Positions 17,841-54,291 of a stretch of 64,000 nucleotides of DNA are shown here, one piece after another. A program made the position numbers and the translations under genes. The stretch is from contig CAKTGF010000004.1 of NCBI GenBank assembly GCA_934561395.1, positions 170,936-234,935 on the forward strand, written 5' to 3'. Every line of letters begins with the position of its first letter. The first letter of the stretch is position 1. This stretch comes from an uncultured Eubacterium sp. GTDB taxonomy: Bacteria; Bacillota; Clostridia; Oscillospirales; Acutalibacteraceae. The notes beneath the pieces were generated by a model. That model had not been told where the DNA came from and made no database searches. It worked only from the letters and a program-made list of their open reading frames with translations.

Positions 17841-19898
17841 TTACTCCTTATTCTGCTTTTGTTTTTTTATTAATTGCTGAATTATATATTTACCTGCAAC
17901 CTCGCCGTTTTTGCCGAAATTGGAAATATATGTGTTGCGAATGTTAAGTATTTTATCGGCATAGCTGTCCTTTTGCTCCAAAAGGCTCTGCGCCGCATTA
18001 TATGCCTTGCCTGCCTCGTTAACCTCCAGGCTTATGCCAACCTCATTTCTAAGCTTAATTTCCAAAGGCTCAATGCCGATTTGCTTATATTCCTTGTTCA
18101 TAACCTTCATGGGCGTGTTAATAAACAAGCAGGGCTTTAGGGTTACATAGGAATATTCAAAGGCAATTGCCGACCAATCGGTAATCAGCAGGTCTGACTG
18201 ATAAATTGAGTCGCTTGATGTGAAATCAAGCTCAAATTTTAAATCGTCGCCCTTATAGTCAGAGTATTTTTTAACAATTGCGTCAAGCCTTTGCGAATAA
18301 CGCTTAACATATTCGGGATGTGGGCGAACAATAATGTTAAGCCCCTTTCCCAAAAGGGAGGATAAAAGCTCATCCAGGCAAAGGTCAAGAATATTATCCT
18401 CCTGCCAGGAGGGTGCAACAAGCACCCGGGGTGTGCCCCCCTCTCGCCTTGGCATTTGGTCATACTGCTGCTTTAAAATCTCCAAAAAGCCGTAGCCTGC
18501 CATAACAAGGTTCTTTGGCGGTAGATTATAAATCTCCTCCTGCCTGCGGATTTCGGGAATTTGGAACTCACCTATGCAGAAGATAGTATCATAGCTGTCA
18601 AGGCTGTGGTTATTAAGCAAAAGGTGCGTGCTCATAGGGCCGTGCATAGTATAAATATACTCAATATCCTTGCGGATATATGAACGTTTGTAATGGAAAT
18701 TTTCAATATCCGGCATTGTCATTAAAACAATGTCAGCATCCATTTTCATAAACAGGGTTATAAGCTTTTTTTCGCCGATAAAATAGGGCCTTATCTTTGA
18801 ATTTTCCTTGGCTAAATTAAAAATATTATCATTAGGGTCGCTTGTAACATAATGGATAATAATATTTGAATTATTCAGTAAGTAATCAATAATTGTGCTG
18901 AAATATTTGTAATAGCCGTTCCGCTCGGAATAAATAACAAGGTGCTTGTTTGCAACGGAAAAGAATTTTTTATAATCTGCCTTTTCACGCCTGTAAAGCT
19001 GGCTGCCTACCTCAATTTTATTTTTTTGGCCCACGGAATCAATTTTTTCAAGCTCTTTTTTACTTTCCTCAAGAGCCTTATAGTCAATATATTTTTTAGG
19101 GTTTATTATTGCATTTAAAACCAGCTGTTGAACCATTGTGAACAGGTTGCTGAAAATCCAGTAAAGGCCGATGCCTGCCGGCACAAAGCCGCCGAGAACA
19201 AGTGAAATGCCAACCGAAAGTGCATTTGTAGCCAGCTGCTGAGCCCTGCCCTGCTCCGCCTGCAAGGGGTTCATTTTGTTTTGAAACAAGCACAGTGCCA
19301 AAGCGCAGCCCCCTGCTAAAACCGGAACCAAAAGCATTATTCCCCCTGCCGCAATAGGTGTGGAGGATAAATCAAAGCCCAAAAAGTTCATATCAAGGGC
19401 TTTTATTGCCGACAAATCGGTGCCGTCAACCGTAAATCCCTCCTGTATCGCTTTTACAACCGCAAGCTGAATTGAATTTGAGCTGCTGTCAAGTCCCATG
19501 CCGGCACAAACGGAATTAATAAGCGCCGAAGCGGTATTTTTATCCATAGCAAGCACATTGCTCAAGGGATTATAAATAATTTGAACAACGCACATTAACA
19601 GCACAAGCTGAATAACCATGGGCAGCATGCCTGCCAATGGGCGATATTTTTCTCTTTTATAAAGGCTTAACTGCTCCTCTGAAATTTTATCTTTTTCGCC
19701 GTAGTATTTGGCTTTAATCACATTAAGCTCGGGCTGGAGCTTAACAAGTTTTACAGAATTTTTATGGGTCCATAAGGAAACAGGAAGCATAACAACCTTT
19801 GTCAGCAGGGTAAATAAAATTATTGCCAGCCCGTAGTTTGACAGCAGGTTGTAGCAAAGCCGCATTATGTAACCGAAAGGATACGCTAAATACTCCAT
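17841..19898 (-). CDS. Fusion protein: N-terminal YidC/Oxa1-family membrane insertase domain plus C-terminal CDP-glycerol glycerophosphotransferase (TagB/TagF-like) domain
   Basis: Residues ~1-280 contain 'LQPELNVIKAKYYGEKDKISEEQLSLYKREKYRPLAGMLPMVIQLVLLM', matching the YidC/SpoIIIJ conserved region (LQPEM..KY....Q.E...LYK..G.NPLAGCLP..IQ). Residues ~300-685 contain 'YIYTMHGP', 'LVAPSW' and 'IVRPHP', the Glyphos_transf-type blocks of TagF-like enzymes. Confidence 0.65.
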   Translation of the reverse strand: MEYLAYPFGYIMRLCYNLLSNYGLAIILFTLLTKVVMLPVSLWTHKNSVKLVKLQPELNVIKAKYYGEKDKISEEQLSLYKREKYRPLAGMLPMVIQLVLLMCVVQIIYNPLSNVLAMDKNTASALINSVCAGMGLDSSSNSIQLAVVKAIQEGFTVDGTDLSAIKALDMNFLGFDLSSTPIAAGGIMLLVPVLAGGCALALCLFQNKMNPLQAEQGRAQQLATNALSVGISLVLGGFVPAGIGLYWIFSNLFTMVQQLVLNAIINPKKYIDYKALEESKKELEKIDSVGQKNKIEVGSQLYRREKADYKKFFSVANKHLVIYSERNGYYKYFSTIIDYLLNNSNIIIHYVTSDPNDNIFNLAKENSKIRPYFIGEKKLITLFMKMDADIVLMTMPDIENFHYKRSYIRKDIEYIYTMHGPMSTHLLLNNHSLDSYDTIFCIGEFQIPEIRRQEEIYNLPPKNLVMAGYGFLEILKQQYDQMPRREGGTPRVLVAPSWQEDNILDLCLDELLSSLLGKGLNIIVRPHPEYVKRYSQRLDAIVKKYSDYKGDDLKFELDFTSSDSIYQSDLLITDWSAIAFEYSYVTLKPCLFINTPMKVMNKEYKQIGIEPLEIKLRNEVGISLEVNEAGKAYNAAQSLLEQKDSYADKILNIRNTYISNFGKNGEVAGKYIIQQLIKKQKQNKE

Positions 19899-19908
19899 AA
19901 CTCCCCCA

Positions 19909-21654
19909 TCAATACCACTGATAATCAGATTTTATACGCTCGGCTATTTTCCAATTTGAAATATCCGTGGCGTCGCCCTCAATTGAATATTTGTTAAAGC
20001 AAAGCTTGTGCTCTGCCGGGCTGTAAACAGATTGATAAAAAGTTCTGCAGACATTTTCATTTTCGCCTATGTCAAAAACTCCCCTGCCGTAGCTGTTTTC
20101 GGTCTTTAAGCCTGCATCCTTAACAATTGTGGGGATTATATCGGCGGCGGAAACCTGGGCGTGTGAAACCGAAGAGCCCTCGGTATCTGTATTTCTCGGC
20201 TTAACCATAATGCAGGTTTTAACGCCGCTTTCAACCTGAGCGTCCAAATCCTCGGTTTCGGTGTATGGAATACCGTGGTCACCTGCAATTATAATTGTTG
20301 AATTGTCATAAACGCCCAGTTCTTTAAGCTGGTTTAAATATTCGTAAACCAATTTAAAACTGCCCTTTGTTTGGGATAATGAGGTTGCGTTTTCTGTTCT
20401 CTCGCAGTTTTCGTCAAGAACAAAGGGTGTGTGGCAGCCGTGAAGATACAAAAATGTGTAATTTTTATCGCTGCCTGAATCGCTTAAATTGTTTTCAGTG
20501 ATTAAATCGTAAAGTTTGGCGTCGTCATTAGCGTAAATGCCGTTTTCGCAGTTAAGCTTTGACAGATTGTTAGTTCTGCCGGTGTTTGCGTTTTCATACA
20601 TCTGACTTGTTAAGGTCATTGAAAATGAGCGTGCAAAGGAAAGTTCAGTTAAATATTTGAATATATCGGTTTTATTTGGGGTGTAGCCCTCAACCTTTTC
20701 AACATTATCGGCAATTCCGTTAAAGCTTGACGCATCGGAATAAACATAATATCTGTCGGCATAAACGCTTACGCTGTAGCCGTTATTTTTTAAATCCTTT
20801 AAAAACGGCGAGGTTTGGTATGCCTCGTCAAAATACTCGGTGGGCGAGCATTGCAGGCTGTATTCAACGCCGGAAATCATATAGGGCACACCGGGAAATG
20901 TGCGGGTATACATTGATGTGGCGTTGTCAAAAATCGTAAAGCCGTCAAGATCGTCAAAAAAGCTTGGGTCATCCTTAATAACATTTTCGTAATAAGTGGT
21001 ATCAAATCTGTCAAACAATATGTAAATGATATTTTCCTTTTCCGACGCCTTGGTAATATCCTTTTGCGACAGCACATATTCGGTATTTATTCCCTTATCG
21101 GAAAACAGGTTGTATTTGGTAAAATCGGTAACAAGGCTTGCACCGTTCATTACTATGAGCAAAACGCTTAAGTAAATAACAACCTTTTTCCAAACATTCA
21201 TCAGCAGCCCTGAAACAAGAACTATTGCCAGAATAATTATAACATAAATTATAAATGACAGAACAAGGTCGCCGTAGCTTGCGTTTTTAGCGTCGCCCGA
21301 AACAACGGTAACAGCCTTAACGCACAGGTTATCAAAATAGCTGGCAACTATAATTGAAAAAGCAAGAGCTGAAAGCATATTCAGCAAATATCTGTTAAAC
21401 AGCATTAAAAAGCCAAACAGCAGTGCAAAGCCTATAACAAAGCTTAACACCACCAAGCCGATTATATCGCTGAAAGAAAAGGCAAACTCACGCATATTAT
21501 TTGCGTAAATATCAATAGGACCGAAAAGTAAAAATACAAAGGACATTGTAAGTGAGGTCAAAGCCGCAATTATTGCCTTTTCCTTTGTTGAATATTTACT
21601 GAATTTTGGTTTTGAGGAATTTTCTTTGTCTTTCTCTGCTTTACCGAATTTCAT
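19909..21654 (-). CDS. LtaS-like polyglycerolphosphate transferase / sulfatase-family membrane protein
   Basis: A 5-TM N-terminal region followed by an extracytoplasmic alkaline-phosphatase-like domain ('LYLHGCHTPF', 'IIIAGDHGIP'). Confidence 0.6.
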   Translation of the reverse strand: MKFGKAEKDKENSSKPKFSKYSTKEKAIIAALTSLTMSFVFLLFGPIDIYANNMREFAFSFSDIIGLVVLSFVIGFALLFGFLMLFNRYLLNMLSALAFSIIVASYFDNLCVKAVTVVSGDAKNASYGDLVLSFIIYVIIILAIVLVSGLLMNVWKKVVIYLSVLLIVMNGASLVTDFTKYNLFSDKGINTEYVLSQKDITKASEKENIIYILFDRFDTTYYENVIKDDPSFFDDLDGFTIFDNATSMYTRTFPGVPYMISGVEYSLQCSPTEYFDEAYQTSPFLKDLKNNGYSVSVYADRYYVYSDASSFNGIADNVEKVEGYTPNKTDIFKYLTELSFARSFSMTLTSQMYENANTGRTNNLSKLNCENGIYANDDAKLYDLITENNLSDSGSDKNYTFLYLHGCHTPFVLDENCERTENATSLSQTKGSFKLVYEYLNQLKELGVYDNSTIIIAGDHGIPYTETEDLDAQVESGVKTCIMVKPRNTDTEGSSVSHAQVSAADIIPTIVKDAGLKTENSYGRGVFDIGENENVCRTFYQSVYSPAEHKLCFNKYSIEGDATDISNWKIAERIKSDYQWY

Positions 21655-27767: not shown

Positions 27768-27800
27768 AAAAAATACCGAGGCACGCCTCGGTATTTTTTT
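27768..27800. terminator. Bidirectional rho-independent terminator
   Basis: A TACCGAGGC/GCCTCGGTA stem flanked by an A-run and a T-run. It lies between ldh and the convergent IspD/TarI-like gene. Confidence 0.85.
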
Positions 27801-28455
27801 ATTTATGTTTTTTTGCTGTGAGGAAGGCCTCAAGGTATTTTAAGTCCTCGGGATATGTAAGCTTAAAGTTATTGTTAAAATCGAAATAAAGCTTAATTGG
27901 GGCGCTTTCAGGCAGCTGCTGCGTAACCTCCGTAAGCTTGGAGCATTCGTCAAAGTGCTCATAAAGCAAATTGAAATCAAAGCCCTCGGGAGATTGCATT
28001 AAATAATACCTTTCCCTATCCACCTTTTGGAAATCGTAACAGCCCAGAGAATCTGTAATCTTTTGGGCGGTTACAACTGCGGAGTAATCGTTAAGGTATT
28101 CAAAATAGCTGTCGATATGTTCGCTTGTTACCATTGGCCTTACAGCGTCGCAAACAATGAGCTTTTTGCAGCTGTAATTGCCGTGAATATAATCAAGAAC
28201 ATTTTTAAGGGTTTTATTTCTTGTATCTCCGCCCTGAATTAAATCAATATTGCCTGCCCTGCAAATATCCTCAAGATAAACACTGTTGGCTTTAACATCG
28301 GTGGCAATAACCAATTTATCGGTGCTGTTTGAATTTAAAACAGAGTCAATAACATATTCAATTATCATTTTATCGCAAACCTTGGCGAACTGCTTTGGAA
28401 TTTCAGCACCGAAACGAGCGCCCACGCCGTTTGCAAGAATAGCAACTATGTTCAT
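27799..28455 (-). CDS. IspD/TarI-family sugar-(alcohol)-phosphate cytidylyltransferase
   Basis: 'ILANGVGARFGAEIPKQF' matches the IspD/TarI glycine-rich CTP-binding motif. It is the last gene of the rmlAB operon, not an MEP-pathway context. Confidence 0.65.
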   Translation of the reverse strand: MNIVAILANGVGARFGAEIPKQFAKVCDKMIIEYVIDSVLNSNSTDKLVIATDVKANSVYLEDICRAGNIDLIQGGDTRNKTLKNVLDYIHGNYSCKKLIVCDAVRPMVTSEHIDSYFEYLNDYSAVVTAQKITDSLGCYDFQKVDRERYYLMQSPEGFDFNLLYEHFDECSKLTEVTQQLPESAPIKLYFDFNNNFKLTYPEDLKYLEAFLTAKKHK

Positions 28456-28461
28456 AATTTT

Positions 28462-29481
28462 TTACCTGTCAGAATACATTTTTTCGTAATAGCTTTGGTA
28501 TTCCCCTGAAATAATATTCTCCCACCAGGGCTTGTTTTGCAAATACCAATCTATGGTTTTTTTAATTCCGTCGTCAAACCTTGTTTGCGGCAACCAGCCA
28601 AGCTCGTTATGTATTTTTGCGGGGTCGATAGCATAGCGCATATCGTGGCCGGGTCTGTCGGTAACAAAGGTAATAAGCGATTCGGGCTTGTTAAGGTGTT
28701 TTAATATTGCCTTAACCACCTGCAAATTGGTTCTTTCGTTATGGCCGCCCACATTATAAACCTGGCCTACTCTGCCCTTGCGCATTACCAAATCAATGGC
28801 TGAGCAATGGTCCTCAACATAAAGCCAGTCACGCACATTTTCCCCGGTGCCGTAAACAGGCAGGCTTTGGTCTGCAAGAGCCCTGCTGATAATCAGCGGT
28901 ATCAACTTTTCGGGGAAATGATAGGGGCCGTAGTTATTTGAGCACCTTGTTATTGAAACCGGCAAGCCGTAGGTTCTGTAATAAGCCAGCACCAACAAAT
29001 CTGCCCCTGCCTTTGATGATGAATATGGGGAGGAGGTGTGAATAGGCGTTTCCTCGGTAAAGAAAAGGTCAGGTCTGTCAAGGGGCAAATCGCCATATAC
29101 CTCGTCGGTGGAAACCTGATGGTAGCGCTTAATGCCGTATTTCCTGCAAGCGTCCATAAGTACCTGAACGCCCATAATATTTGTTTTTAAAAAAATTTCG
29201 GGATTTTCTATTGAGCGGTCAACATGGGATTCTGCGGCAAAATTAACCACAATATCCGGCTTATGTTCCTCAAACATCTTGTTGATGGCGTTGCGGTCGG
29301 CAATGTCGGCCTTAACAAAGGTAAATGAGGGGTTATTCATAACAGGCTCAAGGGTTTCCAAATTGCCTGCATAGGTTAAGCTGTCAACACAAATAATTTT
29401 ATCCTCGGGATGATTTTTCAGCTGATAAAATATAAAATTTGAACCGATAAAACCTGCGCCGCCGGTAACAACTATATTCAT
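28462..29481 (-). CDS. rfbB: dTDP-glucose 4,6-dehydratase
   Basis: 'VTGGAGFIGSNF' and the 'YxxxK' short-chain-dehydrogenase catalytic context ('YSSSKAGAD'). Confidence 0.9.
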   Translation of the reverse strand: MNIVVTGGAGFIGSNFIFYQLKNHPEDKIICVDSLTYAGNLETLEPVMNNPSFTFVKADIADRNAINKMFEEHKPDIVVNFAAESHVDRSIENPEIFLKTNIMGVQVLMDACRKYGIKRYHQVSTDEVYGDLPLDRPDLFFTEETPIHTSSPYSSSKAGADLLVLAYYRTYGLPVSITRCSNNYGPYHFPEKLIPLIISRALADQSLPVYGTGENVRDWLYVEDHCSAIDLVMRKGRVGQVYNVGGHNERTNLQVVKAILKHLNKPESLITFVTDRPGHDMRYAIDPAKIHNELGWLPQTRFDDGIKKTIDWYLQNKPWWENIISGEYQSYYEKMYSDR

Positions 29482-29483
29482 TT

Positions 29484-30377
29484 TCAGTCCTCCTCGTGCA
29501 TTGCTTCATCGGCAACATTGTGAAGATATTTGCCGTAATCCGATTTGCCGTATTTTTCGGCAGATTTAAGCAGCTGCTCCCTGTCGATTATGCCCTTGCG
29601 AAAGGCAATTTCTTCGGGAGCTGAAATTCTGATTCCCTGCTGGTTTTGAATTGTTTTTACAAAATTACCGGCATCAATAAGGCTGTCCATAGTGCCGGTA
29701 TCAAGCCAGGCAAAGCCCCTGCCCAACAGCTTAACATCAAGCTGATTTTCATTAAGGTAAAGGCTGTTTAAATCGGTAATTTCAAACTCTCCCCTTGCAG
29801 ACGGGCTTAAACCCTTGGCAAATTCAACACAGCGGTTATCGTAAAAGTAAAGGCCGGTAACCGCCCAGGGAGATTTTGCTTTTTCAGGCTTTTCCTCAAT
29901 AGAAATAACCCTGCCATTTTGGTCAAATTCTATAATACCGAAGCGCTCCGGGTCCTCAACATGGTAGCCGAAAACCGTCGCCCTGCCATTAATCAAAGCG
30001 TTTTCCTTAGCCTGGGTAAGCAGCTTGCTGAGCCCTGCTCCGTAAAAAATATTGTCGCCTAAAATCATGGCGCAGCAATCGTCGCCGATAAAATCCTCGC
30101 CGATAACAAAGGCCTGTGCCAAGCCGTCCGGCGAGGGCTGCTCTTTATATGAAAGCTTAACGCCGTATTGGCTGCCGTCCCCCAAAAGCTTTTTAAAATT
30201 AGGCAAATCCTCGGGGGTGGAAATAATCAAAATATCGTCAATGCCTGCAAGCATAAGTGTGCTGAGAGGATAATAAATCATCGGCTTGTCATAAACCGGT
30301 AAAAGCTGCTTTGATGCAACAAGGGTTAAGGGATAAAGCCTTGTTCCCGAGCCGCCTGCTAAAATTATACCCTTCAT
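29484..30377 (-). CDS. rfbA: Glucose-1-phosphate thymidylyltransferase
   Basis: '[18 protein letters not shown]' and '[17 protein letters not shown]', the RmlA signatures. Confidence 0.9.
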
Positions 30378-30379
30378 AA

Positions 30380-31519
30380 CTAATCTCCTAAACCAAGTTC
30401 TGTAAGTAGCTGTCTTTGTATATCTGCATTACCGCCCCTTGACACTACCTGCCTTGCTGACGATAAAGCCTGCCTGCGCTTTTTTAACACAGCATCAAGC
30501 AATCTGTTAAGCCTTGCCACAGGCAATAACAGCTTGTTTTTGTTGTAATACGGATATGCTTTTTTTAAAAATTCCCTGCTTGGGAACGCAAGCTTTGCCA
30601 GGGTTGAAAGCCTGCTTTTTCCAACTGAATCGACGGGAATTGAATTAACATAATAGCCAAAGCTGCCGCCGTCAAGCATAACGGCGCCAAAGCACTCCTC
30701 CAGCCTGCCGTCAATTTCAAAATCGGCTGAAACAGGGGTGTTAAACCATTTTTTGCACAGTGAAAGGAGCACCCTTGTGCATTGCAGTACCCCTGCGTTT
30801 TCTGCAAGGTGCATTAATTTTTCTTCATCAAAGCCGTTAATGCCTCGGGCCATAGCATCAATATCCATTAACATTCTGACCCCTGCTCCCCTGTATGAAA
30901 GGTGCTTGCACAAATGGCATATAACATAAATCAGCTCGTCATATTCGGACAGGCTGTAATTATAATCATATTTTAAAGCAGAAATATCAAAAATATTGTC
31001 AAAATACGGTGTTTTTAAATCGGCACCGCTATGGAACTCAACTTCCACGCCGCCAATATCAACATTTATAACATTTGTTGAATAATTTTTAATTTTAAAA
31101 TCGGTATTTTTAAGCTGTTTATATACACCGTCAAGGGTGTTTTCTCTTAATATAACATCAATGTCGCCGCTGGTGCGAAGAGCAGGCACAGGGTAATAAT
31201 TTTTAACTGTAACACCCTTAACAAATATATGGTCGATTTTGTTTAAATTCAAAAAATCATCTGTAATTTTTAAAGCACTGCTGCGTTTTTCGTCAGCCTG
31301 CACTGCGTAACCCAGCTGCTGGTTAAAAAGTGACTTTATATTTTCATTTGGCTGATTTTCAGGGGGCAGCAGCTTAATTTGGTTCATTAAAATGCCGCAC
31401 AGGTTATGCTTTTTTGCAAGGGTATATACACTTTGCCAATCAACATTTTCCCCTTTGGGGGCAGTGCCGTTTAAAAAGCTTGCCAGGAGATGAATAAAAT
31501 ATTCTTTTTCAGCTGTCAT
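30380..31519 (-). CDS. Pol-beta-superfamily nucleotidyltransferase of the uncharacterised NTP_transf_5 (PF14907-like) family
   Basis: '[16 protein letters not shown]' is a hG[GS]..D.D nucleotidyltransferase motif, and the protein is ~380 aa. The likely start is MTAEKEYF, which has an AGGAGGGGA RBS. The track ORF begins 60 nt earlier. Confidence 0.6.
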
Positions 31520-31594
31520 TGCATCCCCTCCTAAAAATCGGTATATATTTATTATATTTGCAATATACTGCCAAGTCAAGGAAAAGCAGGCTTG

Positions 31595-32321
31595 CTAAAT
31601 TTTGCACTCGTCATAGCTTAAGCCGCACATTTCCTCAAAGGAGGTTTTAACCGCCTCCTCCGACATATCACAGCTTAAGGAATAAAGGGGTATTTTTGAA
31701 AGGCTGTTAATAAGCTCCAGAGTTTTTACGGTGGCGTTAGCGTCAAAAGGCATATAAACCTGCTTAATAACCTCGCTTAAATTAGCACCGAAGCCGATTT
31801 TTTCAATTTTATTAACAGTTCCCCTGTTCACAATGCATACTGCCTTTAAAGGGGCGCTGGAATAGTTTTGCCAGCCCTCCTTGCCTGCATAAGGGGTTGA
31901 ATAAATAGTTGCGCCGTTATCCGTTATTCTGATAATGGGCTTGTCGCCGTTAACAAATGCCACACCATTACCCAAATATTTTCTCCACAATGAAATATGG
32001 GTGGATTTTCCCGTTCCGCTGGGGGCGGTAAAAACAAAGCCCATATTTTTATAAGATATTGCGGCACCGTGGAGAATAAATCTGTTATAAAAAGGCAGTC
32101 TTTCTGCAATTTCACGGTAAATGCAGGTGGTTTCGGCAAATGCCGGCGAGGGTATGCCCTTGCACATTTCAACCTCTTCAGAAATTTTCTTTTCAGTTGA
32201 CTTAACCGAAAAATCAGGCTCCGCTTCAGTTAAATATTCCTTGCAAAGGTTAAAGGTATCCTCATAATATGTGGTAATGCCGATGTTAAGGTCAGCAAAA
32301 TTAACAGTAAAATTATACATA
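31595..32321 (-). CDS. HPr-kinase C-terminal-domain-like P-loop kinase (HprK-related kinase)
   Basis: 'LHGAAISYKNMGFVFTAPSGTGKSTHISLW...FVNGD' parallels the HprK catalytic core 'LHG..V...G.GVLI.G.SG.GKSE.AL.L...GH.LV.DD'. It is ~242 aa from an ATG with GGAG 6 nt upstream. It is the first gene after a TTGACT-N17-TATAAT promoter. Confidence 0.55.
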
Positions 32322-32382
32322 AAGCACTCCAAACAATTTATACCTTAATTATAAAGGCAAACCGATATTAAGTCAAGCAAGC

Positions 32383-32416
32383 AAAACGCTATGCAGCCTG
32401 CACTGCATAGCGTTTT
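32383..32416 (-). terminator. Rho-independent terminator downstream of the giant surface-protein gene
   Basis: A CGCTATGCAG/CTGCATAGCG 10-bp stem. A T-run follows on the minus strand (A-run 32383-32386 on the plus strand). Confidence 0.8.
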
Positions 32417-37533: not shown

Positions 37534-37731
37534 CTATTTCTCCTTATAGTACAAATGGCAATGGCAAAAGCCCTCATAATTTTCATCAGCAATTTGCTCC
37601 CTGAACTCCTTGCAAATGCAAAGGTTATCCTCGCACTTCTCAAGCCTGCAGGGGCAGTAGCCGCCTTTTTTAAGCATTGCGGCATAAATTTTGTCGGCAA
37701 TTTCTTTATTTGGATTTCTGTAAATTTTCAT
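37534..37731 (-). CDS. Ferredoxin-thioredoxin-reductase catalytic-subunit-like small Fe-S/disulfide protein
   Basis: 65 aa with CPC(R)...CxC...CHC cysteine spacing ('GGYCPCRLEKCEDNLCICKE...GFCHCH'), matching the FTR-beta catalytic motif. Its stop is 2 nt from the MFS start. Confidence 0.5.
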   Translation of the reverse strand: MKIYRNPNKEIADKIYAAMLKKGGYCPCRLEKCEDNLCICKEFREQIADENYEGFCHCHLYYKEK

Positions 37732-39423: not shown

Positions 39424-40386
39424 TTATTTTAACCTTTTTTTCAGTTCATCCACAGTAAGGCATTTTGCATTTTTCAAAAGTTCCTTATATCTATCCATAT
39501 TATATTGTGAATGTTCCGTTTCCTTTGACCATAAATGCACCGTCCAGCTGCTTTCGCCGAAATATGTATTTAAAAGCACGCCTATTACCGCCATTTTAGC
39601 CTTGGATAAAATATCAAAATCATAAACAGCCTGCAAATAATATTTGTAAACAAAATACGCCGCCACATTTTCATTTGAAATGGTATTTTCAATGTTTTTG
39701 TATGTGGGATTTTTTACCCTTTCCACCCATTCCCTGTTAATAACCTCCGGGTTTTTGAAAACATCAATAAAATCAATTTCATCATTGCCGTTAGGATATT
39801 CGCCAAGTTCGTTCTGAACATCTGCGGCCAAATCCAAAATATCGGCTAAGCGCTCATTAAGCGGCTTTTCATCATTTTGCAAAATTTTAAATGTGTTTTT
39901 CCTTGCTGATACAAGCTTAAAATATGTTTCGGCGTCAATATCGTTAAGGCTTGGTGGCTCGGCATTGATTTCATCCTCAAAGGTTAAATGGCCGTTAAGG
40001 TTATAAATCATATCTGCCGCCACCGGGCAGGAAAAGGAAATGCCTATTTCCCTTGTGCCGCCGAAATCATAGATAAACCTGGGAAAGGTTCGGCAGGTGT
40101 ATGGTGTGTGCTCGCCGCCGATTGCAATGTGCATATCGCAAAGATTTTCGTCATTTAAAAACGGGCAGCGCTTTTTAGGGGCAAGGGTAAATATGGTGTT
40201 ATCAAATTCATCCTTATCAAGCACACGGTCAATTCGCTGCTTAATTTCAAGGCTGCTGTCAAGCTTTGAGTAATACATCAGTGATTTTTCGTCTGCATCA
40301 ACCTCCCAGCCTTGGCAGCAGGAATCCGGGCAGGCGCCGGCAATGCATTTAAAATCCTTATAATAAACAGGTTTAACAATCCTCAT
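39424..40386 (-). CDS. FliB/YkgJ-family Cys-cluster protein (annotated in databases as flagellin lysine-N-methylase-like)
   Basis: N-terminal 'YYKDFKCIAGACPDSCCQGWEVDAD' matches the CxxxxCxxxCC zinc/iron-chelating motif that begins FliB-family proteins. There is no flagellar context here. Confidence 0.5.
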   Translation of the reverse strand: MRIVKPVYYKDFKCIAGACPDSCCQGWEVDADEKSLMYYSKLDSSLEIKQRIDRVLDKDEFDNTIFTLAPKKRCPFLNDENLCDMHIAIGGEHTPYTCRTFPRFIYDFGGTREIGISFSCPVAADMIYNLNGHLTFEDEINAEPPSLNDIDAETYFKLVSARKNTFKILQNDEKPLNERLADILDLAADVQNELGEYPNGNDEIDFIDVFKNPEVINREWVERVKNPTYKNIENTISNENVAAYFVYKYYLQAVYDFDILSKAKMAVIGVLLNTYFGESSWTVHLWSKETEHSQYNMDRYKELLKNAKCLTVDELKKRLK

Positions 40387-41437
40387 TAAAATTCACGCTC
40401 GCTAAATAATTATTTTTGTATTTTTTGCTTTTGGAAACATCCTTTATTACATTTATTTCAGGCGGCAGGTTAATGGTCTGACCGTCCCTTGATAGCTCCA
40501 GTTCCAGCAGTGCCCTGTCGCTCCAAAAGGGGAATACATCCAATTCAAAATATTGATTTTCATACAAAAGGCAATATCTGTTTTTAACAATTGGGTGCTT
40601 TTTCGGGTCGGCAAGCGCCTTTAGCTCGTTATATTTTTCAGGGCTGATAACGCTTTCGTACTCGTGGCATTTGTCACCGCTGATTCTTATTTTAACATTT
40701 TCAAAGCAGCAAAACGAGCTGCCTGCTCCCCTTTTTCTGATTCTGTGTGAGCCCGTATCCGACAACAAATAAATCTGCTCAATATCTGTTTTAAACATTT
40801 TATACTTTTTCAGTTTGTCTATATCCGGATATTCTATCAGATACTTAATTTCATGCTCAATATTGCTTAAAATGCAGTCAATTTCGGCAATTACGCCCTT
40901 TACTTTTTTCTCAATATCATCACATGAGCCTACAACCCTAAAATGAGGGTGCCCCACCCAGGCGTCAAGGAGCCTGTCCTGATTGATGAGCGCCTGCTCA
41001 TAGCTTTCATAGCGCTCGCAATCCTTTAAGTAATAGGAATTTGAGGGCAATTCCAGCATTACTGCAGCGTCATATCTGCTCCAAATTTTGATAAAATCTG
41101 TATTAAAATGCTTTTTCATTTTATCGCTCTGCGCCTTGTTAAGATAACTGAACGCATCTGCAATGCCACGGTCATAAAGCACTATGGCATTTTCGCAATT
41201 TTCGTTTTTCAGATGTAATTCGATTTGCTCCTCACGCTGAATTTGGCGTTCAATTACCGCCTTTTCAAAGGCATACATATCGTCACGTGGAAAGCCGCTC
41301 TTAATTACCTCTCTTGCACATTCCGGCATTACGGCAACAAAATAGTTTTTACTTTCATAATGCATTTTAAGATAATTTATAACAGTTGTTTTGCCCGAGC
41401 AGGGAGCGCCTGTAAGGGCTATTCTTGTAACATTCAT
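40373..41437 (-). CDS. Fusion protein: N-terminal NadR-like P-loop kinase (AAA_28) domain plus C-terminal CYTH (triphosphate tunnel metalloenzyme) domain
   Basis: Walker A 'LTGAPCSGKTTV' at the N-terminus. The C-terminal ~160 aa start 'HEIKYLIEYPD' (CYTH EI(E/K)-K-F/L opening motif) and carry charged beta-strand patterns 'RIRKRG...ELDVFP...ELELS'. The ORF overlaps the FliB-like gene by 14 nt. Confidence 0.5.
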   Translation of the reverse strand: MNVTRIALTGAPCSGKTTVINYLKMHYESKNYFVAVMPECAREVIKSGFPRDDMYAFEKAVIERQIQREEQIELHLKNENCENAIVLYDRGIADAFSYLNKAQSDKMKKHFNTDFIKIWSRYDAAVMLELPSNSYYLKDCERYESYEQALINQDRLLDAWVGHPHFRVVGSCDDIEKKVKGVIAEIDCILSNIEHEIKYLIEYPDIDKLKKYKMFKTDIEQIYLLSDTGSHRIRKRGAGSSFCCFENVKIRISGDKCHEYESVISPEKYNELKALADPKKHPIVKNRYCLLYENQYFELDVFPFWSDRALLELELSRDGQTINLPPEINVIKDVSKSKKYKNNYLASVNFNEDC

Positions 41438-41573
41438 TATATCACCGAATAACATTATAGCATAATTATTAATTGTTGTAAATTTGTGCAAAAAAATATT
41501 ATTTTGCTATTCAATTTTGCAATCTTATCTGCTATAATAGTGCTATTAAAAATTTTGGAGGTAAAGCTCGCCT

Positions 41574-43001
41574 TTGGCGGGCAAGCAAACTATGGGTGGC
41601 TTTTTTGGTGCAGTTTCAAGGGAAGACTGCGTATTTGATTTATTTTTCGGTGTAGATTATCATTCTCATTTGGGCACACGCCGTGCCGGTATGGCTGTTT
41701 ACAGCCCTGAGAATGGCTTTGACAAAGCAATTCACAACATCGAAAATGCTCCCTTCAGAACCAAGTTCACAAAAGAATCAAACGAAATGCACGGAACAAT
41801 GGGCATTGGATGCATAAGCGATTTTGAGGCACAGCCGATACTTGTGCGTTCACACCACGGCACATTCGCCATTGCAACCGTAGGTAAAATCAATAACAGC
41901 GACCAAATCGCTGACGAAATAATCAAGGGCAACACCCATTTCTTTGAAATGAAGGGCGGCGGAATTAACCAAACCGAGCTTGTTGCGGCAATTATTAATC
42001 AAAAGGAAAACTTTATTGACGGCATAAGATACGCCCAAGAGATTGTTGACGGCTCAATCAGCATGCTTATTTTAACCCCCAAGGGCATTTATGCCGCAAG
42101 GGACAGATTGGGCAGAACTCCAATCGTTATCGGTCAAAAGGACGAAGGCTACTGTGCAAGCTTTGAAAGCTTTGCCTTTCATAATTTGGGCTACACCGAA
42201 TATAAGGAGCTGGGCCCGGGCGAGGTAGTGGTTCTTTCAGCCGACGAGGGCGTAAAAACCTTAATTCCGCCCGGGGATAAAATGAAAATCTGCACCTTCC
42301 TTTGGATTTACTACGGCTATCCGTCATCATCATACGAGGGCATCAGCGTTGAAAAAATGCGCTATAACTGCGGTAAAAAGCTTGCAATGCGTGATAATGT
42401 TAAGCCTGACATTGTAGCAGGCGTTCCCGATTCGGGTATAGCACACGCAATCGGCTATTCAAACCAATCGGGTATTCCCTATTCAAGGCCTTTTGTTAAA
42501 TACACACCAACCTGGCCAAGGTCGTTTATGCCCACAACCCAAACCAAGCGCAACCTTATTGCTAAAATGAAACTTATCCCTATTCAGGATTTAATTGAGG
42601 GCAAGAGCCTGCTGCTTATTGATGACTCTATCGTAAGAGGAACGCAGCTGCGTGAAACCACCGAATACCTTTTTGCCAGCGGCGCAAAAGAGGTTCATAT
42701 CAGGCCTGCCTGCCCACCGTTGGTTTACGGCTGTAAATACCTTAACTTCTCACGCTCATCAAGCGAAATGGAGTTAATCACAAGGCGTGTTATAACACAG
42801 CTTGAGGGCAAGGAGCCTGACGATGAAATCTTAAAGGACTATGTAAACCCGGACAGCGAAAAATACCAAAGAATGATTGATGAAATCTGCAAGCAGCTGC
42901 ATTTCACATCACTCAGGTATCACAGGCTTGACGATATGCTTGAGGCTGTGGGAATTGACCCTGAAAACCTTTGCACATACTGCTGGGACGGTAAGGAATA
43001 A
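41574..43001 (+). CDS. Amidophosphoribosyltransferase (PurF)-like class-II amidotransferase paralog lacking the N-terminal catalytic cysteine
   Basis: Aligns with PurF throughout ('GVPDSGIAHAIGY', PRPP motif 'LLLIDDSIVRGTQ', C-terminal Cys pair 'CTYCWDGK'). The N-terminus is 'M(AGKQTM)GGFFG' where PurF has 'MCG(I/V)(V/F)G', so the Ntn nucleophile Cys is a Gly. The TTG start at 41574 has a GGAGG RBS at the right spacing. Confidence 0.65.
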   Translation: MAGKQTMGGFFGAVSREDCVFDLFFGVDYHSHLGTRRAGMAVYSPENGFDKAIHNIENAPFRTKFTKESNEMHGTMGIGCISDFEAQPILVRSHHGTFAIATVGKINNSDQIADEIIKGNTHFFEMKGGGINQTELVAAIINQKENFIDGIRYAQEIVDGSISMLILTPKGIYAARDRLGRTPIVIGQKDEGYCASFESFAFHNLGYTEYKELGPGEVVVLSADEGVKTLIPPGDKMKICTFLWIYYGYPSSSYEGISVEKMRYNCGKKLAMRDNVKPDIVAGVPDSGIAHAIGYSNQSGIPYSRPFVKYTPTWPRSFMPTTQTKRNLIAKMKLIPIQDLIEGKSLLLIDDSIVRGTQLRETTEYLFASGAKEVHIRPACPPLVYGCKYLNFSRSSSEMELITRRVITQLEGKEPDDEILKDYVNPDSEKYQRMIDEICKQLHFTSLRYHRLDDMLEAVGIDPENLCTYCWDGKE

Positions 43002-43227: not shown

Positions 43228-43833
43228 CTAAATTAAATCTTTAATAACCTTAACCGCAACACCCTGAATAACCAAATCGCCCTCAACGATAATATCGTCA
43301 AGTTCTTCGTTTTCGGGATGAAGAATAAATCGTTGATTTTTTACATCCTTGTAAAAGCGCTTTAATGTTGTTTCGTCACCGTAAAGGGCAACAACAATAT
43401 CGCCGTCACGGGCTACTGCCTGCCTGCGTATAACAACCAGGTCGCCGTCATCAATGCCTGCATTAATCATTGAATTGCCGCTGGCAGTGAGCATAAAAAA
43501 CTCGCCGTTGCCAAGCATGCTTGCAGGGAGCCTGAAATAATCAGTAATATTTTGCTCCGCAAAGGTTAATGCACCGCAGGAAATTGTACCCACAACGCCC
43601 ACATTAACACCCTCGGTGTCAAGCTTATCCATAGCATCGGTATGAATACCACGCCTGCCGTTATATTCGATTTCGCCGCTGTTGTTGAGCTGCTCAAGGT
43701 AGCGTTGAACAGTTGACTTGCCCACATTAAGCCGTGCGGCAATTTCCCTAACTGAGGGAGAACGGCCGAACTCAAAATAATATTCCTCGGCAAACTCCTT
43801 AATATCTGATAAAAGTTGTGGATTTTTCGGCAT
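43228..43833 (-). CDS. lexA: LexA-family SOS repressor (S24 peptidase)
   Basis: N-terminal HTH 'SVREIAARLNVGKSTVQRYLEQL' and C-terminal S24 'GNSMINAGIDDGDLVVI...TLKRF' (Ser/Lys dyad). The true start MPKNPQ follows a GTGAGGG RBS. The track ORF extends upstream through the promoter. Confidence 0.8.
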   Translation of the reverse strand: MPKNPQLLSDIKEFAEEYYFEFGRSPSVREIAARLNVGKSTVQRYLEQLNNSGEIEYNGRRGIHTDAMDKLDTEGVNVGVVGTISCGALTFAEQNITDYFRLPASMLGNGEFFMLTASGNSMINAGIDDGDLVVIRRQAVARDGDIVVALYGDETTLKRFYKDVKNQRFILHPENEELDDIIVEGDLVIQGVAVKVIKDLI

Positions 43834-43854
43834 TTTAAGCGCCCTCACTTTCGT

Positions 43855-43907
43855 GGGACATCTTGTCCCATTGACTACATTATAGCAGATGCCGCCTCCC
43901 CTGTCAA
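43855..43907 (-). promoter_or_regulatory. lexA sigma-A promoter (TTGACA-N17-TATAAT) with a perfect GGGACA-N3-TGTCCC palindrome between the -10 and the RBS
   Basis: Read in minus-strand sense, the -35 is at 43907-43902 and the -10 at 43884-43879. A 6-3-6 inverted repeat lies at 43869-43855, overlapping the predicted transcription start. Confidence 0.5.
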
Positions 43908-44044
43908 TAGGAATTTGTAATTTTTTGTTACTTTTTTGTAACTTGTTGTCGTAACTGAAAAGTATTCCTGCTAAATACTTATGCAAGCTCAATTAAAACT
44001 ATTCCAAATAAAAAAGCCCTATGCAATGCATAGGGTAATTTTTA

Positions 44045-46584: not shown

Positions 46585-47112
46585 TTATTGGTCATTAGAC
46601 AGTTCCATTCGATACAGTAATTCATCCAAAAATTCCGTTTGTCTGTCAACAGAAAAGCAAAACTGTTTGCCACCCTTTAGGGTTATCTCAATATAGTCTG
46701 AATAATCCCCGGCAATTAATGACCTTTTGGCCTTTCTGCGGTCATATCTTAAGTTGAAATTACTGTTATAGGCGCTTACGATGTCTGAATAATTTATTGT
46801 AAATTTAGGCTTATTCTTTCCGAAGCCCAAATTTTGTGTTGTAATTTCCAAATATGTATCATAAAGAACAACACCCTTAAAGCAGAAACAATATTTAAAT
46901 GCGAAAAACAGGCCGGCTAAAACAGATACCGACATCAGTGCCACAAGAATTTCATCATTAATATATTTATTAATGCCCGTTATTCCCATACCTATTAAGA
47001 TAATAAATAATGCAATTATGGGCATTACAAAATTTCCGCATAATGAGAAAAATCCACTGACAAGCTTATCAATAAAATGAGAATACCTAAAATAATATAC
47101 TTTTGCTTTCAT
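46585..47112 (-). CDS. Bacterial PH-domain (bPH_2 / YdbS-like) membrane protein, paralog A
   Basis: Two N-terminal TM helices followed by a ~100-aa cytoplasmic domain ('KGVVLYDTYLEI...YIEITLKGGKQFCFSVDRQTEFLDEL'). Confidence 0.5.
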   Translation of the reverse strand: MKAKVYYFRYSHFIDKLVSGFFSLCGNFVMPIIALFIILIGMGITGINKYINDEILVALMSVSVLAGLFFAFKYCFCFKGVVLYDTYLEITTQNLGFGKNKPKFTINYSDIVSAYNSNFNLRYDRRKAKRSLIAGDYSDYIEITLKGGKQFCFSVDRQTEFLDELLYRMELSNDQ

Positions 47113-47119
47113 ATAAATC

Positions 47120-47632
47120 CTACACTTTTTGAATTAAGGAATCTAAGGTTTCACAAAATTCCTCTTGATTTTCAATACTGAAAAAATATTTCTTGCCGTT
47201 TTTCATTGTGATTTCAACATTATATGCATTGTCCCCAAAAGGCACAAGTAACGAACCGTGATATTGACTAAATCGCAAATCATTGTAATTTACATTAACG
47301 CTTTCAATTTCATCATATCTTAAAACAATGCGGTTTTTCCAATTTCTAAAGATAATTGTATAACGGGCAATAACCAAATGCTCATCATAAAGGAAAACGC
47401 CCTTTCTTAAAACACAATAAATTACCGTCCATAATATTGAGCAAGCAAGAATTATTTTTTGAATAATACCAATTGCAGTGTCATTGTTAAGATACTGCCC
47501 CAAGCCGATTAATGCCAGCACACGCAAGATAATCAGCGCAAAAATCTGCGGCAGCAGTAAATTCTGCAACGGCAGTACAATTGATTTTAACAGCTTAAAG
47601 GTGCCGTTATAATACCTGAATTTATATCTCAT
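47120..47632 (-). CDS. Bacterial PH-domain (bPH_2 / YdbS-like) membrane protein, paralog B
   Basis: Same architecture and a conserved pattern relative to the adjacent gene ('KGVFLYDEHLVI...NVEITMKNGKKYFFSIENQEEFCETL'). The two form a tandem duplicate pair. Confidence 0.5.
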   Translation of the reverse strand: MRYKFRYYNGTFKLLKSIVLPLQNLLLPQIFALIILRVLALIGLGQYLNNDTAIGIIQKIILACSILWTVIYCVLRKGVFLYDEHLVIARYTIIFRNWKNRIVLRYDEIESVNVNYNDLRFSQYHGSLLVPFGDNAYNVEITMKNGKKYFFSIENQEEFCETLDSLIQKV

Positions 47633-52542: not shown

Positions 52543-54291
52543 CTATTTTTTAGGAAATTGGGAGTTGTAAAGTTCAAAGTAAAAGCCTTTTTTATCCAAA
52601 AGTTCCCTGTGATTTCCCTGCTCGATAATATTCCCGTTTTTCATAACCAAAATTATATCTGCTTCCTTAATTGTGGCTAATCTGTGGGCAACAATAAAGG
52701 TTGTTTTGCCCTGCATCAGATTTGAAAATGCCTTTTGTATTTTAATTTCGGTTCTTGTGTCTATTGATGAAGTTGCCTCGTCAAGAATCAAAACAGGCGG
52801 TCTGCAAAGCATAAGCCTTGAAATGCAAAGCAGCTGCTTTTGACCTTGGGAAAGAGAGCCGCCGTCCTCGCCTATTACCGTGTCGTAGCCGTAGGGCAAG
52901 CGCTTGATAAAGGAGTGAGCGTGAGCTTTTTTTGCAGCCTCAACGATTTGTTCGTCTGTGGCATTTTCAACGCCTAAGGCAATATTTTCCTTAATCGTGC
53001 CGGCTTTAAGCCAGGTGTCCTGCAGCACCATTCCGATATTTGACCTTAAGGATTTAAGCTTAACCTCGGAATATGGCTTACCGTCAATAACTATCTGCCC
53101 GCTGTCAGGCTCATAAAACCTCATTAAAAGGTTAATAAGAGTTGTCTTGCCGCAGCCTGTGGGGCCTACGATAGCCACCCTTTGACCGTTTTTAACGGAA
53201 AGATTAAAGTCCTCGATCAGCTTTTTATCTTTTATATAAGAAAAACTTACATTCTTAAGCTCTATATTGCCGTTAACATCCACAAGTTCTAAAGCGTTTT
53301 CACTGTCCGGAGCGATTTCCTTCTCCTCCAAAAGCTCAAACAGCCTGCCTGCACAGGCGATGGCGTTTTGCAGCTCTGTAATAACGCCGCTTATTTCGTT
53401 AAAGGGCTTGGTGTATTGATTTGCGTATGACAAAAAGCAGGTTAACACACCAACCGTAATAGCCTGCTGCTGTGTTTTAACCGCAAGCATAGCGCCGAAA
53501 AGAGCCACCGCTGCATAAACAATGCTGTTAACAAACCTTGTTGCCGGGTTTGTAATTGATGAAAAGAAAACTGCCTTAAGAGAATAGCCCTGCAAGCGAT
53601 TGTTGATTTCATCAAAGGCTTTGATATTTTCTTCCCCGTGGGAATAAGCGTCAACCAGCTTTTGGTTGCCAATCATTTCATCAATAAATGAGGTTTGCTC
53701 GCCCCTGGTTTCGGATTGCAGCTTAAACATTTTGTAGGTTCTCTTTGCAATATACCTTGCAATAAAGAACGAAAGCGGAGTTACCAAAACAACAACAATG
53801 GTTATCCACAAATTAATTGAAAGCATAAAGCCGATTGTGCCGAAAATTGTTATAACCCCTGTAAAGAACTGTGTAAAGCCCACCAGCAGGCCGTCTGCAA
53901 ACTGGTCAACATCGGCAATTACTCTTGCTACAATATCCCCTGTCGGGTTTGAATCAATGTATGAAATGGGCAGGCGCTCTATTTTGCTGAAGGCTCTGTC
54001 CCTCATATCACGAACTACATTAAAGGTTATTTTGTTGTTGCAAACATTCATAAGCCATTGAGAAAGGGCAACAACGCCGATAATAACGCATACCTTAACC
54101 AAAATTGGGATTATGCCTTTAAAATTAACCAAGCCCTCGGCAATAATGCAGTCAATGGCGTTACCGATAAGAACGGGCACATAAAGGGTGCCTGCCACGC
54201 TTACAATCGCAAGGAGCATTGAAAGAATAAGATAAATTCTGTATCTTCCCACATAGGAAACCACTTTTTTAATTACGGTTTTATTGTTCAT
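52543..54291 (-). CDS. ABC exporter, fused permease-ATPase (heterodimer partner 2)
   Basis: A 6-TM N-terminal domain plus Walker A 'GPTGCGKTT', 'LSQGQKQLLCISR' and 'ILILDEATS'. Confidence 0.8.
   Translation of the reverse strand: MNNKTVIKKVVSYVGRYRIYLILSMLLAIVSVAGTLYVPVLIGNAIDCIIAEGLVNFKGIIPILVKVCVIIGVVALSQWLMNVCNNKITFNVVRDMRDRAFSKIERLPISYIDSNPTGDIVARVIADVDQFADGLLVGFTQFFTGVITIFGTIGFMLSINLWITIVVVLVTPLSFFIARYIAKRTYKMFKLQSETRGEQTSFIDEMIGNQKLVDAYSHGEENIKAFDEINNRLQGYSLKAVFFSSITNPATRFVNSIVYAAVALFGAMLAVKTQQQAITVGVLTCFLSYANQYTKPFNEISGVITELQNAIACAGRLFELLEEKEIAPDSENALELVDVNGNIELKNVSFSYIKDKKLIEDFNLSVKNGQRVAIVGPTGCGKTTLINLLMRFYEPDSGQIVIDGKPYSEVKLKSLRSNIGMVLQDTWLKAGTIKENIALGVENATDEQIVEAAKKAHAHSFIKRLPYGYDTVIGEDGGSLSQGQKQLLCISRLMLCRPPVLILDEATSSIDTRTEIKIQKAFSNLMQGKTTFIVAHRLATIKEADIILVMKNGNIIEQGNHRELLDKKGFYFELYNSQFPKK

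Follow-up and report, generated by a model that had tools for sequence, protein, structure and literature searches.

An orphan HprK-like and PF14907 protein pair attached directly to nucleotide-sugar synthesis genes in an uncultured Eubacterium

A 64,000-nucleotide stretch of DNA from an uncultured Eubacterium sp. of the Acutalibacteraceae (contig CAKTGF010000004.1, positions 170,936 to 234,935; hereafter the window, numbered from its first letter) carries five densely packed open reading frames (ORFs) on the minus strand at 27799-32320. They encode, in order, a predicted HprK-like kinase (K, or ORF1), a PF14907 nucleotidyltransferase (N, or ORF2), RmlA, RmlB, and an IspD/TarI-like cytidylyltransferase (ORF5). 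The pairing of such a kinase with such a nucleotidyltransferase, and the use of the pair outside lasso peptide clusters, are already known; what is new here is the orphan state of the pair and its direct attachment to genes for nucleotide-sugar and CDP-alcohol synthesis. We tentatively read the operon as a stripped-down, trans-acting offshoot of the phospho-tailoring machinery of linear polyphosphorylated peptides (LPPs) and of paeninodin-type lasso peptides, transcriptionally joined to its own donor supply, a reading to which we give somewhat less than an even chance.

The five genes are separated by short spacers, of 75 nt between K and N, 2 nt between N and rmlA, 2 nt between rmlA and rmlB, and 6 nt between rmlB and ORF5. 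An earlier note on this DNA, made from the sequence alone, had listed the five genes in this order and with these identities, and all of the ORFs are present, on the minus strand. The note had also placed them under a single promoter, and that promoter-like site, TTGACT-N17-TATAAT at 32348-32376 upstream of K (P1; minus strand, 11 of 12 consensus matches), is indeed present. An identical motif (P2) lies at 31551-31579 on the same strand, in the spacer between K and N, where no hairpin is found. These are the only two exact matches to the motif in 64 kb, against a chance expectation of 0, and the claim of one promoter is thus better read as two promoter-like sites. The operon is bracketed by hairpin terminators. 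On the upstream side, a terminator-like 16-bp hairpin (32383-32416, minus strand; RNA folding energy -24.6 kcal/mol, z=-4.08, with 0 of 200 shuffled sequences folding equally well) lies directly 3' of the stop codon of a surface-protein gene, and separates that gene from the operon. On the downstream side, a bidirectional intrinsic terminator with a 14-bp stem and T-runs on both sides (27768-27799) is shared with a convergent ldh gene. Taken together, the hairpin, the terminator and the two promoter-like sites define the unit from K to ORF5 as a self-contained operon, insulated from the surface-protein gene. Co-transcription of rmlA, rmlB and the IspD/TarI-like gene with K and N, which had also been proposed, is upheld by this layout.

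K (31595-32320) is an LppK/ScmC-like P-loop protein of the HprK/PEPCK fold with 241 residues, predicted to be an ATP-dependent serine kinase. The ATG at 32320, which follows a GGAG ribosome-binding site, is favoured as the start because a database protein 98% identical to K (P0001) also has 241 residues, and the TTG start at 32332 given by the mechanical ORF call is probably wrong. The P-loop reads FTAPSGTGKST, and the residues invariant in the family are kept, namely H84-G85-A86, A99-x-S101-G102-T103-G104-K105, N124-G125-D126-K127-P128, and P143-x-A145-G146-K147-E148. The HPr-kinase fold that had been assigned to K stands on the structural model, whereas the profile check does not support it: no Pfam family matches K at E<=0.01, PF07475 (HprK_C) included, and the only related NCBIfam match is a weak one to HprK_rel_B (E=4.7e-4, 19.4 bits against a cut-off of 200). 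A profile of K searched against the PDB by sequence alone likewise returned generic P-loop noise only. When the AlphaFold model (pLDDT 94.5) is compared with the PDB by Foldseek, HprK/P and PEPCK structures make up all 50 of the matches listed (the best 50 of 60 with E<=0.001), with E-values of about 1e-6 and global TM-scores that are higher for PEPCK (0.43-0.58) than for HprK/P (0.28-0.36). K is thus HprK-like by its modelled fold and not by PF07475. The fold and P-loop architecture are those of HprK/P (1kkl, 1kkm, 1jb1) and of ATP-PEPCK (1oen, 1ylh), but identity is only 10-18% among the listed matches, the N-terminal domain of HprK is absent, and the gene context is unrelated to the phosphotransferase system.

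Among natural relatives of K, the one encoded in an LPP-like cassette on Butyrivibrio fibrisolvens plasmid pNP243 aligns with it over 198 residues (E=9e-19). The HprK-like protein on the lasso side of that plasmid aligns with K (E=3e-4) in the region of the P-loop only, and a place for K in the paeninodin-type lasso kinase clade is accordingly unsupported. Homologs of K also carry precomputed matches to PF27840, the ScmC family of SynChlorMet, which are faint or weak in the nearest relatives and unmarked for loci L090, L094, L096 and L100. ScmC cassettes also contain a PqqD homolog. The likeness of K to this system lies in the family label on its homologs, whereas no radical-SAM/SPASM partners stand beside ORF1, and a literature search on ScmC found only unrelated acronyms.

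N (30380-31519, 379 residues) is a Pol-beta-type nucleotidyltransferase of PF14907 (NTP_transf_5) and is LppN/PsmN-like. The family assignment, which had been proposed from the sequence, is borne out by the profile check (E=2.7e-33, 116 bits against a gathering score of 31.2). The most probable start, at 31519, is an ATG behind AGGAGG and gives the same length as that called in relatives. The invariant residues are K101, G102, Y109, R115, D119, D121, H202, H206, G211 and D219, with near-invariance (90% or more) at E161 and H163, and the G...DxD motif of the Pol-beta superfamily is retained (G102; D119, D121). The AlphaFold model (pLDDT 92.6) matches in the PDB only remote Pol-beta-superfamily nucleotidyltransferase folds, among them ANT(2'')-Ia, poly(A) polymerases and CCA-adding enzymes, the best match being the MenT1 toxin (E=1.3e-3, TMt 0.60), with TglT/MenT3 also listed. 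A search for close relatives of N in metagenome scans yielded two poor loci only, and the literature search on PF14907 found a passing mention in a phosphonate survey and nothing more.

The remaining three genes encode enzymes of nucleotide-sugar and nucleotide-alcohol synthesis. RmlA, a glucose-1-phosphate thymidylyltransferase (29484-30377; PF00483; TIGR01207, 473.9 bits against a cut-off of 360.65), and RmlB, a dTDP-glucose 4,6-dehydratase (28462-29481; TIGR01181, 494.2 bits against 365.1), both exceed the NCBIfam equivalog cut-offs. These are enzymes of the dTDP-L-rhamnose pathway, but the operon ends at the 4-keto-6-deoxy intermediate, and rmlC and rmlD were not found as dTDP-sugar isomerase or RmlD matches among the suitably sized ORFs scanned in the window, as the earlier note had said of the vicinity. 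ORF5 (27799-28455, 218 residues; PF01128, 96.9 bits) is a divergent cytidylyltransferase of the IspD/TarI fold family. It falls below the cut-offs of both IspD (TIGR00453, 117.9 against 181.3) and TarI (NF001183, 90.8 against 166), is equidistant from the Thermotoga maritima IspD and Staphylococcus aureus TarI in the PDB, and has no TarJ partner in the window. In a relative with the same five-gene operon (locus L099), a second IspD-family gene lies about 6 kb downstream (L099:16169-16520), which has no counterpart in the window; since the relative has this second gene nearby, ORF5 is probably something other than the housekeeping IspD. Elsewhere in the window, at 17841-19898 on the minus strand, is a gene for a 685-residue protein in which a YidC/Oxa1 insertase domain at the N-terminus is combined with a TagF-like CDP-glycerol glycerophosphotransferase domain at the C-terminus. 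The fusion is unusual, and the protein might consume CDP-alcohols. Its gene adjoins one for a 581-residue protein of the sulfatase/LtaS family (19909-21654, minus strand).

The closest described counterpart of the K/N pair is found in the LPP clusters of Paenibacillus alginolyticus, with the gene order lppA-K-B-S-D-N (Popov et al., Nat Commun, May 2026; PMC13381572). These clusters encode a precursor with a YxxP leader (LppA), an HprK-like kinase (LppK), a RiPP recognition element (RRE; LppB), where RiPP denotes a peptide that is made on the ribosome and modified after translation, a SipW-like leader peptidase (LppS), an MsbA-like exporter (LppD) and an NTP transferase (LppN), and in Bacilli they are often embedded in capsule loci (PMC13381572). 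LppK polyphosphorylates Ser3 of the LppA core peptide, whereas LppN was inactive in Bacillus subtilis, for which the authors propose a missing partner that makes 'a rare substrate' (PMC13381572). The LPP machinery is the sister of the tailoring machinery of the lasso peptides paeninodin and pseudomycoidin. The window resembles it in having an HprK-like kinase and an NTP transferase, of LppK type (by the HprK/PEPCK fold and homology to the cassette K of pNP243) and LppN type (by PF14907), in lacking a lasso cyclase, and in being tied to polysaccharide or nucleotide-sugar genes. In addition, Clostridia and Bifidobacterium have the K family itself in K-B-S-D-N cassettes that include YxxP-leader peptides. 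The likeness of K and N to LppK and LppN of P. alginolyticus is drawn from family, fold and context, not from direct sequence alignment. The window differs in having no LppA, LppB, LppS or LppD, and in that N is joined straight to rmlA, rmlB and the IspD/TarI-like gene. The homology of K and N to the phosphorylate-then-decorate pair of Firmicutes RiPPs, which the earlier note had put forward, is therefore sound, but its view of the system as undescribed no longer holds, given the 2026 description of non-lasso K/N pairs in LPP clusters and the normal presence of the K family in that cluster type.

On the lasso side, PsmN of the pseudomycoidin cluster of Bacillus pseudomycoides is required for the addition of one or two hexoses (+162 Da) to a phosphoserine, and a mutant of its DxD motif is dead (PMC6993621). 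PsmN has weak similarity to ANT(2''), and its mechanism and donor are still unestablished (PMC6993621). The window shares with PsmK/PsmN the combination of a kinase with a PF14907-type NTP transferase, the DxD motif of N, and the same remote ANT(2'') fold, but it has no cyclase, B1/B2 or precursor, whereas the psm cluster has no reported sugar-nucleotide genes. PadeK and ThcoK, lasso kinases homologous to HprK, (poly)phosphorylate a serine of the linear precursor (reviewed in PMC8498205). K shares their HprK homology, although theirs is a C-terminal serine and their genes lie within lasso clusters.

To place K among its relatives, about 1,800 family members in a large collection of proteins, most of them from Clostridia of the gut and rumen, were complemented by a census of 80 species-level GTDB loci, in which the 10 kb on either side of K were scanned with hidden Markov models (HMMs) built from the neighbours. 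Many contigs end early, and the census counts are thus lower bounds. A PqqD/RRE gene is found near K in 54 of the 80 loci, an S24/S26 peptidase of about 150 residues with SipW-like G-x-S-M-x-P, V-L-H-R-V and G-D-N motifs in 50, an ABC exporter in 27, and a PF14907 gene in 13. The published LPP leader motif, applied as a strict regular expression to the Clostridial loci, gave nothing convincing; a relaxed pattern, and then a leader HMM, did find leaders, with short YxxP-leader ORFs near K in 24 loci, a few of the weakest matches being doubtful. The leader consensus is M-K-x-Y-x-x-P-x-h-E-V-I-x-F-x-x-E-D-V-I-T-x-S-G, followed by a variable tail of 15-35 residues. For instance, four tandem leader-like ORFs (…Y-I/V-P-L/V-x-V/I-E-V-I-x-F-x-S-E-D-V/I-I-T-x-S…) stand directly upstream of K in a metagenome-assembled genome labelled Synergistaceae (L015:851-1333). 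Gene fusions provide Rosetta-stone evidence that ties K, N, PqqD and the peptidase to one substrate: three join the peptidase to PF14907 (L040:1125-2687, L076:4554-6224 and L078:2364-4046), two join K to PqqD (L010:9980-11008 in the census, and protein P0119), and a single one joins K to the peptidase (L055:4189-5343). Among 141 operonic neighbours of K homologs, in the 25 commonest families of which Asn_synthase was sought, no asparagine-synthase-type cyclase or B2 protein recurs.

The settings of the K family are more varied than the LPP cassette itself. Several K loci lie inside capsule or exopolysaccharide loci with CpsB, Wzz/BY-kinase, GT2 and Wzx genes, and K occurs without any other cassette gene in 16 of the 80 loci, in some of which it adjoins genes for PGA_cap and HAD hydrolase proteins. 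At 43-48% identity, the GTDB relatives nearest to K are from Acutalibacteraceae (L005-L007 and L011) and have neither PqqD nor N nearby; K stands beside a PGA_cap (CapA-like) gene in L005-L007 and, where the contig extends (L005 and L007), between that gene and a HAD hydrolase gene, and the gene after K in L011 encodes a BspA-type LRR_5/dockerin protein. These neighbourhoods indicate that the contexts of K extend past the LPP cassette. Large secreted proteins (BspA-type LRR_5, SLH, Big) are often found near K across the family, and are probably common in these organisms anyway. K homologs with YxxP-leader small ORFs are also present in Bifidobacterium hapali (L025), B. scaligerum (L028) and B. 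santillanense (L043), the second of which has in addition PqqD, an S24/S26 peptidase and an ABC exporter, in a capsule locus with Wzx, Wzz/BY-kinase and RmlB. These Bifidobacterium cassettes fall outside the Bacillota, where the LPP family was described. On pNP243 (L093; 243 kb), the region at 184-200 kb has the LPP-like cassette (K / small ORF / PqqD / S24-S26 / ABC) next to a lasso cluster that is complete and includes two PF14907 genes, and both systems stand among PssD/PssE and GT2 glycosyltransferase genes; both HprK-like proteins are annotated by PGAP only as 'hypothetical protein'.

Against this background, the window is conspicuous for what it lacks. All of the negatives given for it refer to the 64 kb visible. 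The absence of a lasso cyclase, RRE, leader peptidase and precursor, as read earlier from the sequence, was confirmed by HMM and ORF scans. No match to the PqqD HMM was found in a six-frame translation of the entire window, and none to an HMM built from the 35 ORFs located after PqqD genes, which are cassette peptidases almost without exception; the sole S24 protein of the window is a LexA-like repressor (43228-43992). The best match of the leader HMM has E=1.1. No ABC exporter lies in or adjoining the operon, and two ABC half-transporters about 20 kb away (52543-56021) have no visible link to it. Among the window ORFs scanned there is no Asn_synthase match, the gene at 41574-43001 being PurF-like, and the two ORFs of a size suited to lasso B2 proteins (46585-47112 and 47120-47632) have no Pfam match.

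The five-gene arrangement is nonetheless conserved in two relatives. One has a K 98% identical to that of the window (L084) and the other a K 69% and an N 63% identical (L099), and both have K-N-rmlA-rmlB-ispD-like in this order with the same flanks; the junction between N and rmlA is 2-3 nt in the two lineages. The syntenic site that the relatives share is flanked by AAA_28, a FliB-like gene and gdh, and further on by a GntR-aminotransferase gene and a radical-SAM gene. At greater distance, a relative with a K of 58% identity has K-PqqD, and relatives at 52-53% have a membrane protein resembling an energy-coupling factor (ECF) transporter S-component, K and PqqD, while an N protein 41% identical to that of the window stands alone. 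The ECF S-component protein, of about 415 residues and directly upstream of K-PqqD (L001:8610-9857 and L094:6744-8000), is a possible alternative exporter or membrane partner. The small ORFs that separate K from the surface-protein gene in L087-L089 resemble signal-peptide or transmembrane fragments rather than PqqD or a peptidase. Purifying selection acts on all five genes of the operon: the ratio of nonsynonymous to synonymous substitution rates (dN/dS) against L084 is 0.04-0.13 for all five (K 0.07, N 0.13), and against L099 it is 0.05-0.17 for K, N, RmlB and ORF5 (K 0.17, N 0.16), RmlA being left out of this comparison as the lengths differ.

If the operon is a trans-acting offshoot of LPP/paeninodin-type tailoring, then K, with ATP, would place one or more phosphates on a serine of a peptide or protein that is encoded outside the window or is leaderless, and N would cap the phosphate with a glycosyl or alditol-type group. 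RmlA and RmlB would provide dTDP-glucose and dTDP-4-keto-6-deoxyglucose, the IspD/TarI-like enzyme would provide a CDP-activated alcohol or sugar, and the dTDP-sugar, the CDP product or both would serve N as donor, either directly or after steps encoded elsewhere. The serine kinase activity of K and the decoration of the phosphate by N are predicted by analogy with the characterised LppK, PadeK, PsmK and PsmN. The coupling of N to the three nucleotide-sugar genes we infer from the spacer-less N-rmlA junction in two lineages, the donor predicted in the literature, and the recurrence of the family in polysaccharide loci; the donor and the target named here are likewise putative. A more specific version, in which N moves a deoxyhexose- or alditol-phosphate-type unit from a dTDP or CDP donor to the phosphoserine made by the kinase, yielding a phosphodiester-linked glycan without leader peptide, RRE or peptidase, its carrier being a peptide that has no leader or an entire protein, possibly a surface one, is a long shot.

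Several observations weigh against a donor-coupled tailoring system. No RRE, peptidase, exporter or precursor is present in the 64 kb, and a peptide target is thus assumed, not seen. N has only 18-22% identity to cassette-type N proteins, and the use of an NDP-sugar by a Pol-beta nucleotidyltransferase would take chemistry not yet described. Other points concern distribution. The earlier note had asked whether the linkage to rmlA and rmlB recurs without lasso genes, and the neighbourhood census answers in the negative: rmlA lies beside N in 0 of the 80 GTDB loci, likewise 0 of the 80 have K and N together with neither PqqD nor peptidase, and the five-gene arrangement is confined to one narrow lineage, that of the window and the 69% relative. 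Relatives with a K of 61-63% identity have K-N only, followed by unrelated housekeeping genes, and the segment from N to the GntR-aminotransferase gene varies between lineages. Together, the absence from all 80 loci and the K-N-only sisters mark the attachment of the rml and ispD-like genes as lineage-restricted rather than a trait of the family, and with so narrow a spread the coupling could be an operon accident of that lineage.

It is this last possibility that makes the strongest alternative, namely that K and N are no more than co-transcribed with the sugar genes and act on an unlinked peptide, while rmlA, rmlB and ORF5 have been inserted after N and serve a wall polysaccharide or teichoic acid, with rmlC and rmlD elsewhere. 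We consider this unlikely on balance, although several observations speak for it: the K-N pairs without rml genes at the same syntenic site, the variable segment after N, the second promoter-like site before N, and the YidC-TagF-like protein and LtaS-like sulfatase 6-10 kb away, which could use a CDP-alcohol and would be an independent consumer for the product of ORF5. In addition, RmlB is 90% identical between the lineages in which K is 69% and N 63% identical, as would be expected of a housekeeping enzyme. It fits less well with the 2-3-nt junction between N and rmlA, which leaves no room for a promoter or terminator and is kept in two lineages, or with an operon that stops short of rhamnose at the 4-keto-6-deoxy sugar. 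A donor-supplying partner for LppN has, moreover, been predicted independently (PMC13381572), and the family recurs in polysaccharide loci.

A second alternative is that the acceptor is not a peptide, and that the operon builds or modifies an envelope glycopolymer or small molecule, with K phosphorylating a sugar or polymer hydroxyl, N nucleotidylating or capping it, much as salvage pairs of a kinase and a nucleotidyltransferase do, and the pair thereby repurposed from RiPP tailoring. The lack of RRE, peptidase, exporter and precursor in 64 kb speaks for this alternative, and it would suit an operon with three nucleotidyltransferases and a dehydratase, a K whose fold is common to PEPCK, a small-molecule kinase to which its TM-scores are the higher, and the 16 of 80 loci in which K stands without other cassette genes, some by PGA_cap or HAD hydrolase genes. 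We nevertheless judge it improbable, since K proteins 52-58% identical to that of the window still adjoin PqqD, all characterised relatives act on a peptide serine, and every fusion joins K or N to peptide-handling proteins.

Two further ideas can be set aside more quickly. A toxin-antitoxin or defence pair, with N as a MenT/AbiEii-like nucleotidyltransferase toxin under the control of a kinase in the manner of TglT-TakA, is suggested by MenT1 and TglT/MenT3 among the fold matches of N but is very improbable, as those matches are remote and common to poly(A) polymerases, CCA-adding enzymes and ANT(2''), neither K, N nor ORF5 is hit by a PADLOC model at E<=0.1, K-N is vertically inherited at a syntenic housekeeping site, the gap between N and rmlA is only 2 nt, and the context of the family is RiPP-like. 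Likewise, the absence of four or five of the six core LPP genes, together with the occurrence of K-N, N alone or K-PqqD at comparable sites in related genomes, might point to a decaying LPP-cluster remnant with no present function, an idea that is rejected on the low dN/dS of K and N against both relatives and is hardly credible with all family-invariant catalytic residues, the ribosome-binding sites and the promoter-like sites intact.

For the trans-acting tailoring system that we tentatively favour, two neighbouring gene products had been suggested as targets, and neither is supported. The operon does lie right after the gene of a large surface protein, as had been noted, although the protein is 1218 rather than 1219 residues long when counted from the ATG of its signal peptide. 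This Big_2/fn3 secreted protein, with a Sec signal peptide, has its own terminator and no leader-like motif, and its adjacency to K-N is not kept in sister lineages. In the case of the GH43 enzyme, nothing speaks for it as a target; its gene is convergent to the operon and located past ldh.

The PF14907 enzyme is the unsolved step of phospho-peptide tailoring in two studies, as PsmN (PMC6993621) and as LppN (PMC13381572), and the main value of the locus is a testable donor hypothesis for enzymes of this type, with dTDP-glucose, dTDP-4-keto-6-deoxyglucose and CDP-alcohols as the candidates. Should the transfer of a unit from such a donor to the phosphoserine prove true, the operon would represent a protein phosphoglycosylation system evolved from RiPP machinery, and would reveal the donor chemistry of PsmN and LppN. 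The locus also shows that K and N can persist without RRE, peptidase, exporter and linked precursor, which raises the question of their substrate. Through the census, the range of LPP-type cassettes now takes in Clostridia of the gut and rumen as well as Bifidobacterium, and a consensus for their precursor leader is provided.

Two other features of the window deserve mention. A 65-residue cysteine-rich ORF (37534-37731, minus strand; …GGYCPCR…CICKEF…GFCHCHLYYKEK) is highly conserved in relatives, and its place is upstream of an MFS gene in the window and of K in L090. It was considered as a precursor or RRE and rejected, since a YxxP leader and a PqqD match are both lacking and its cysteines follow a CPC...CxC...CHC pattern; on visual inspection it resembles a small redox protein or one that binds metal. 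At 39424-41491, also on the minus strand, a homolog of the FliB-type flagellin lysine-N-methylase (195.6 bits, with a cut-off of 85) forms a pair with an AAA_28 ATPase, and across relatives the two keep their synteny with the K-N locus.

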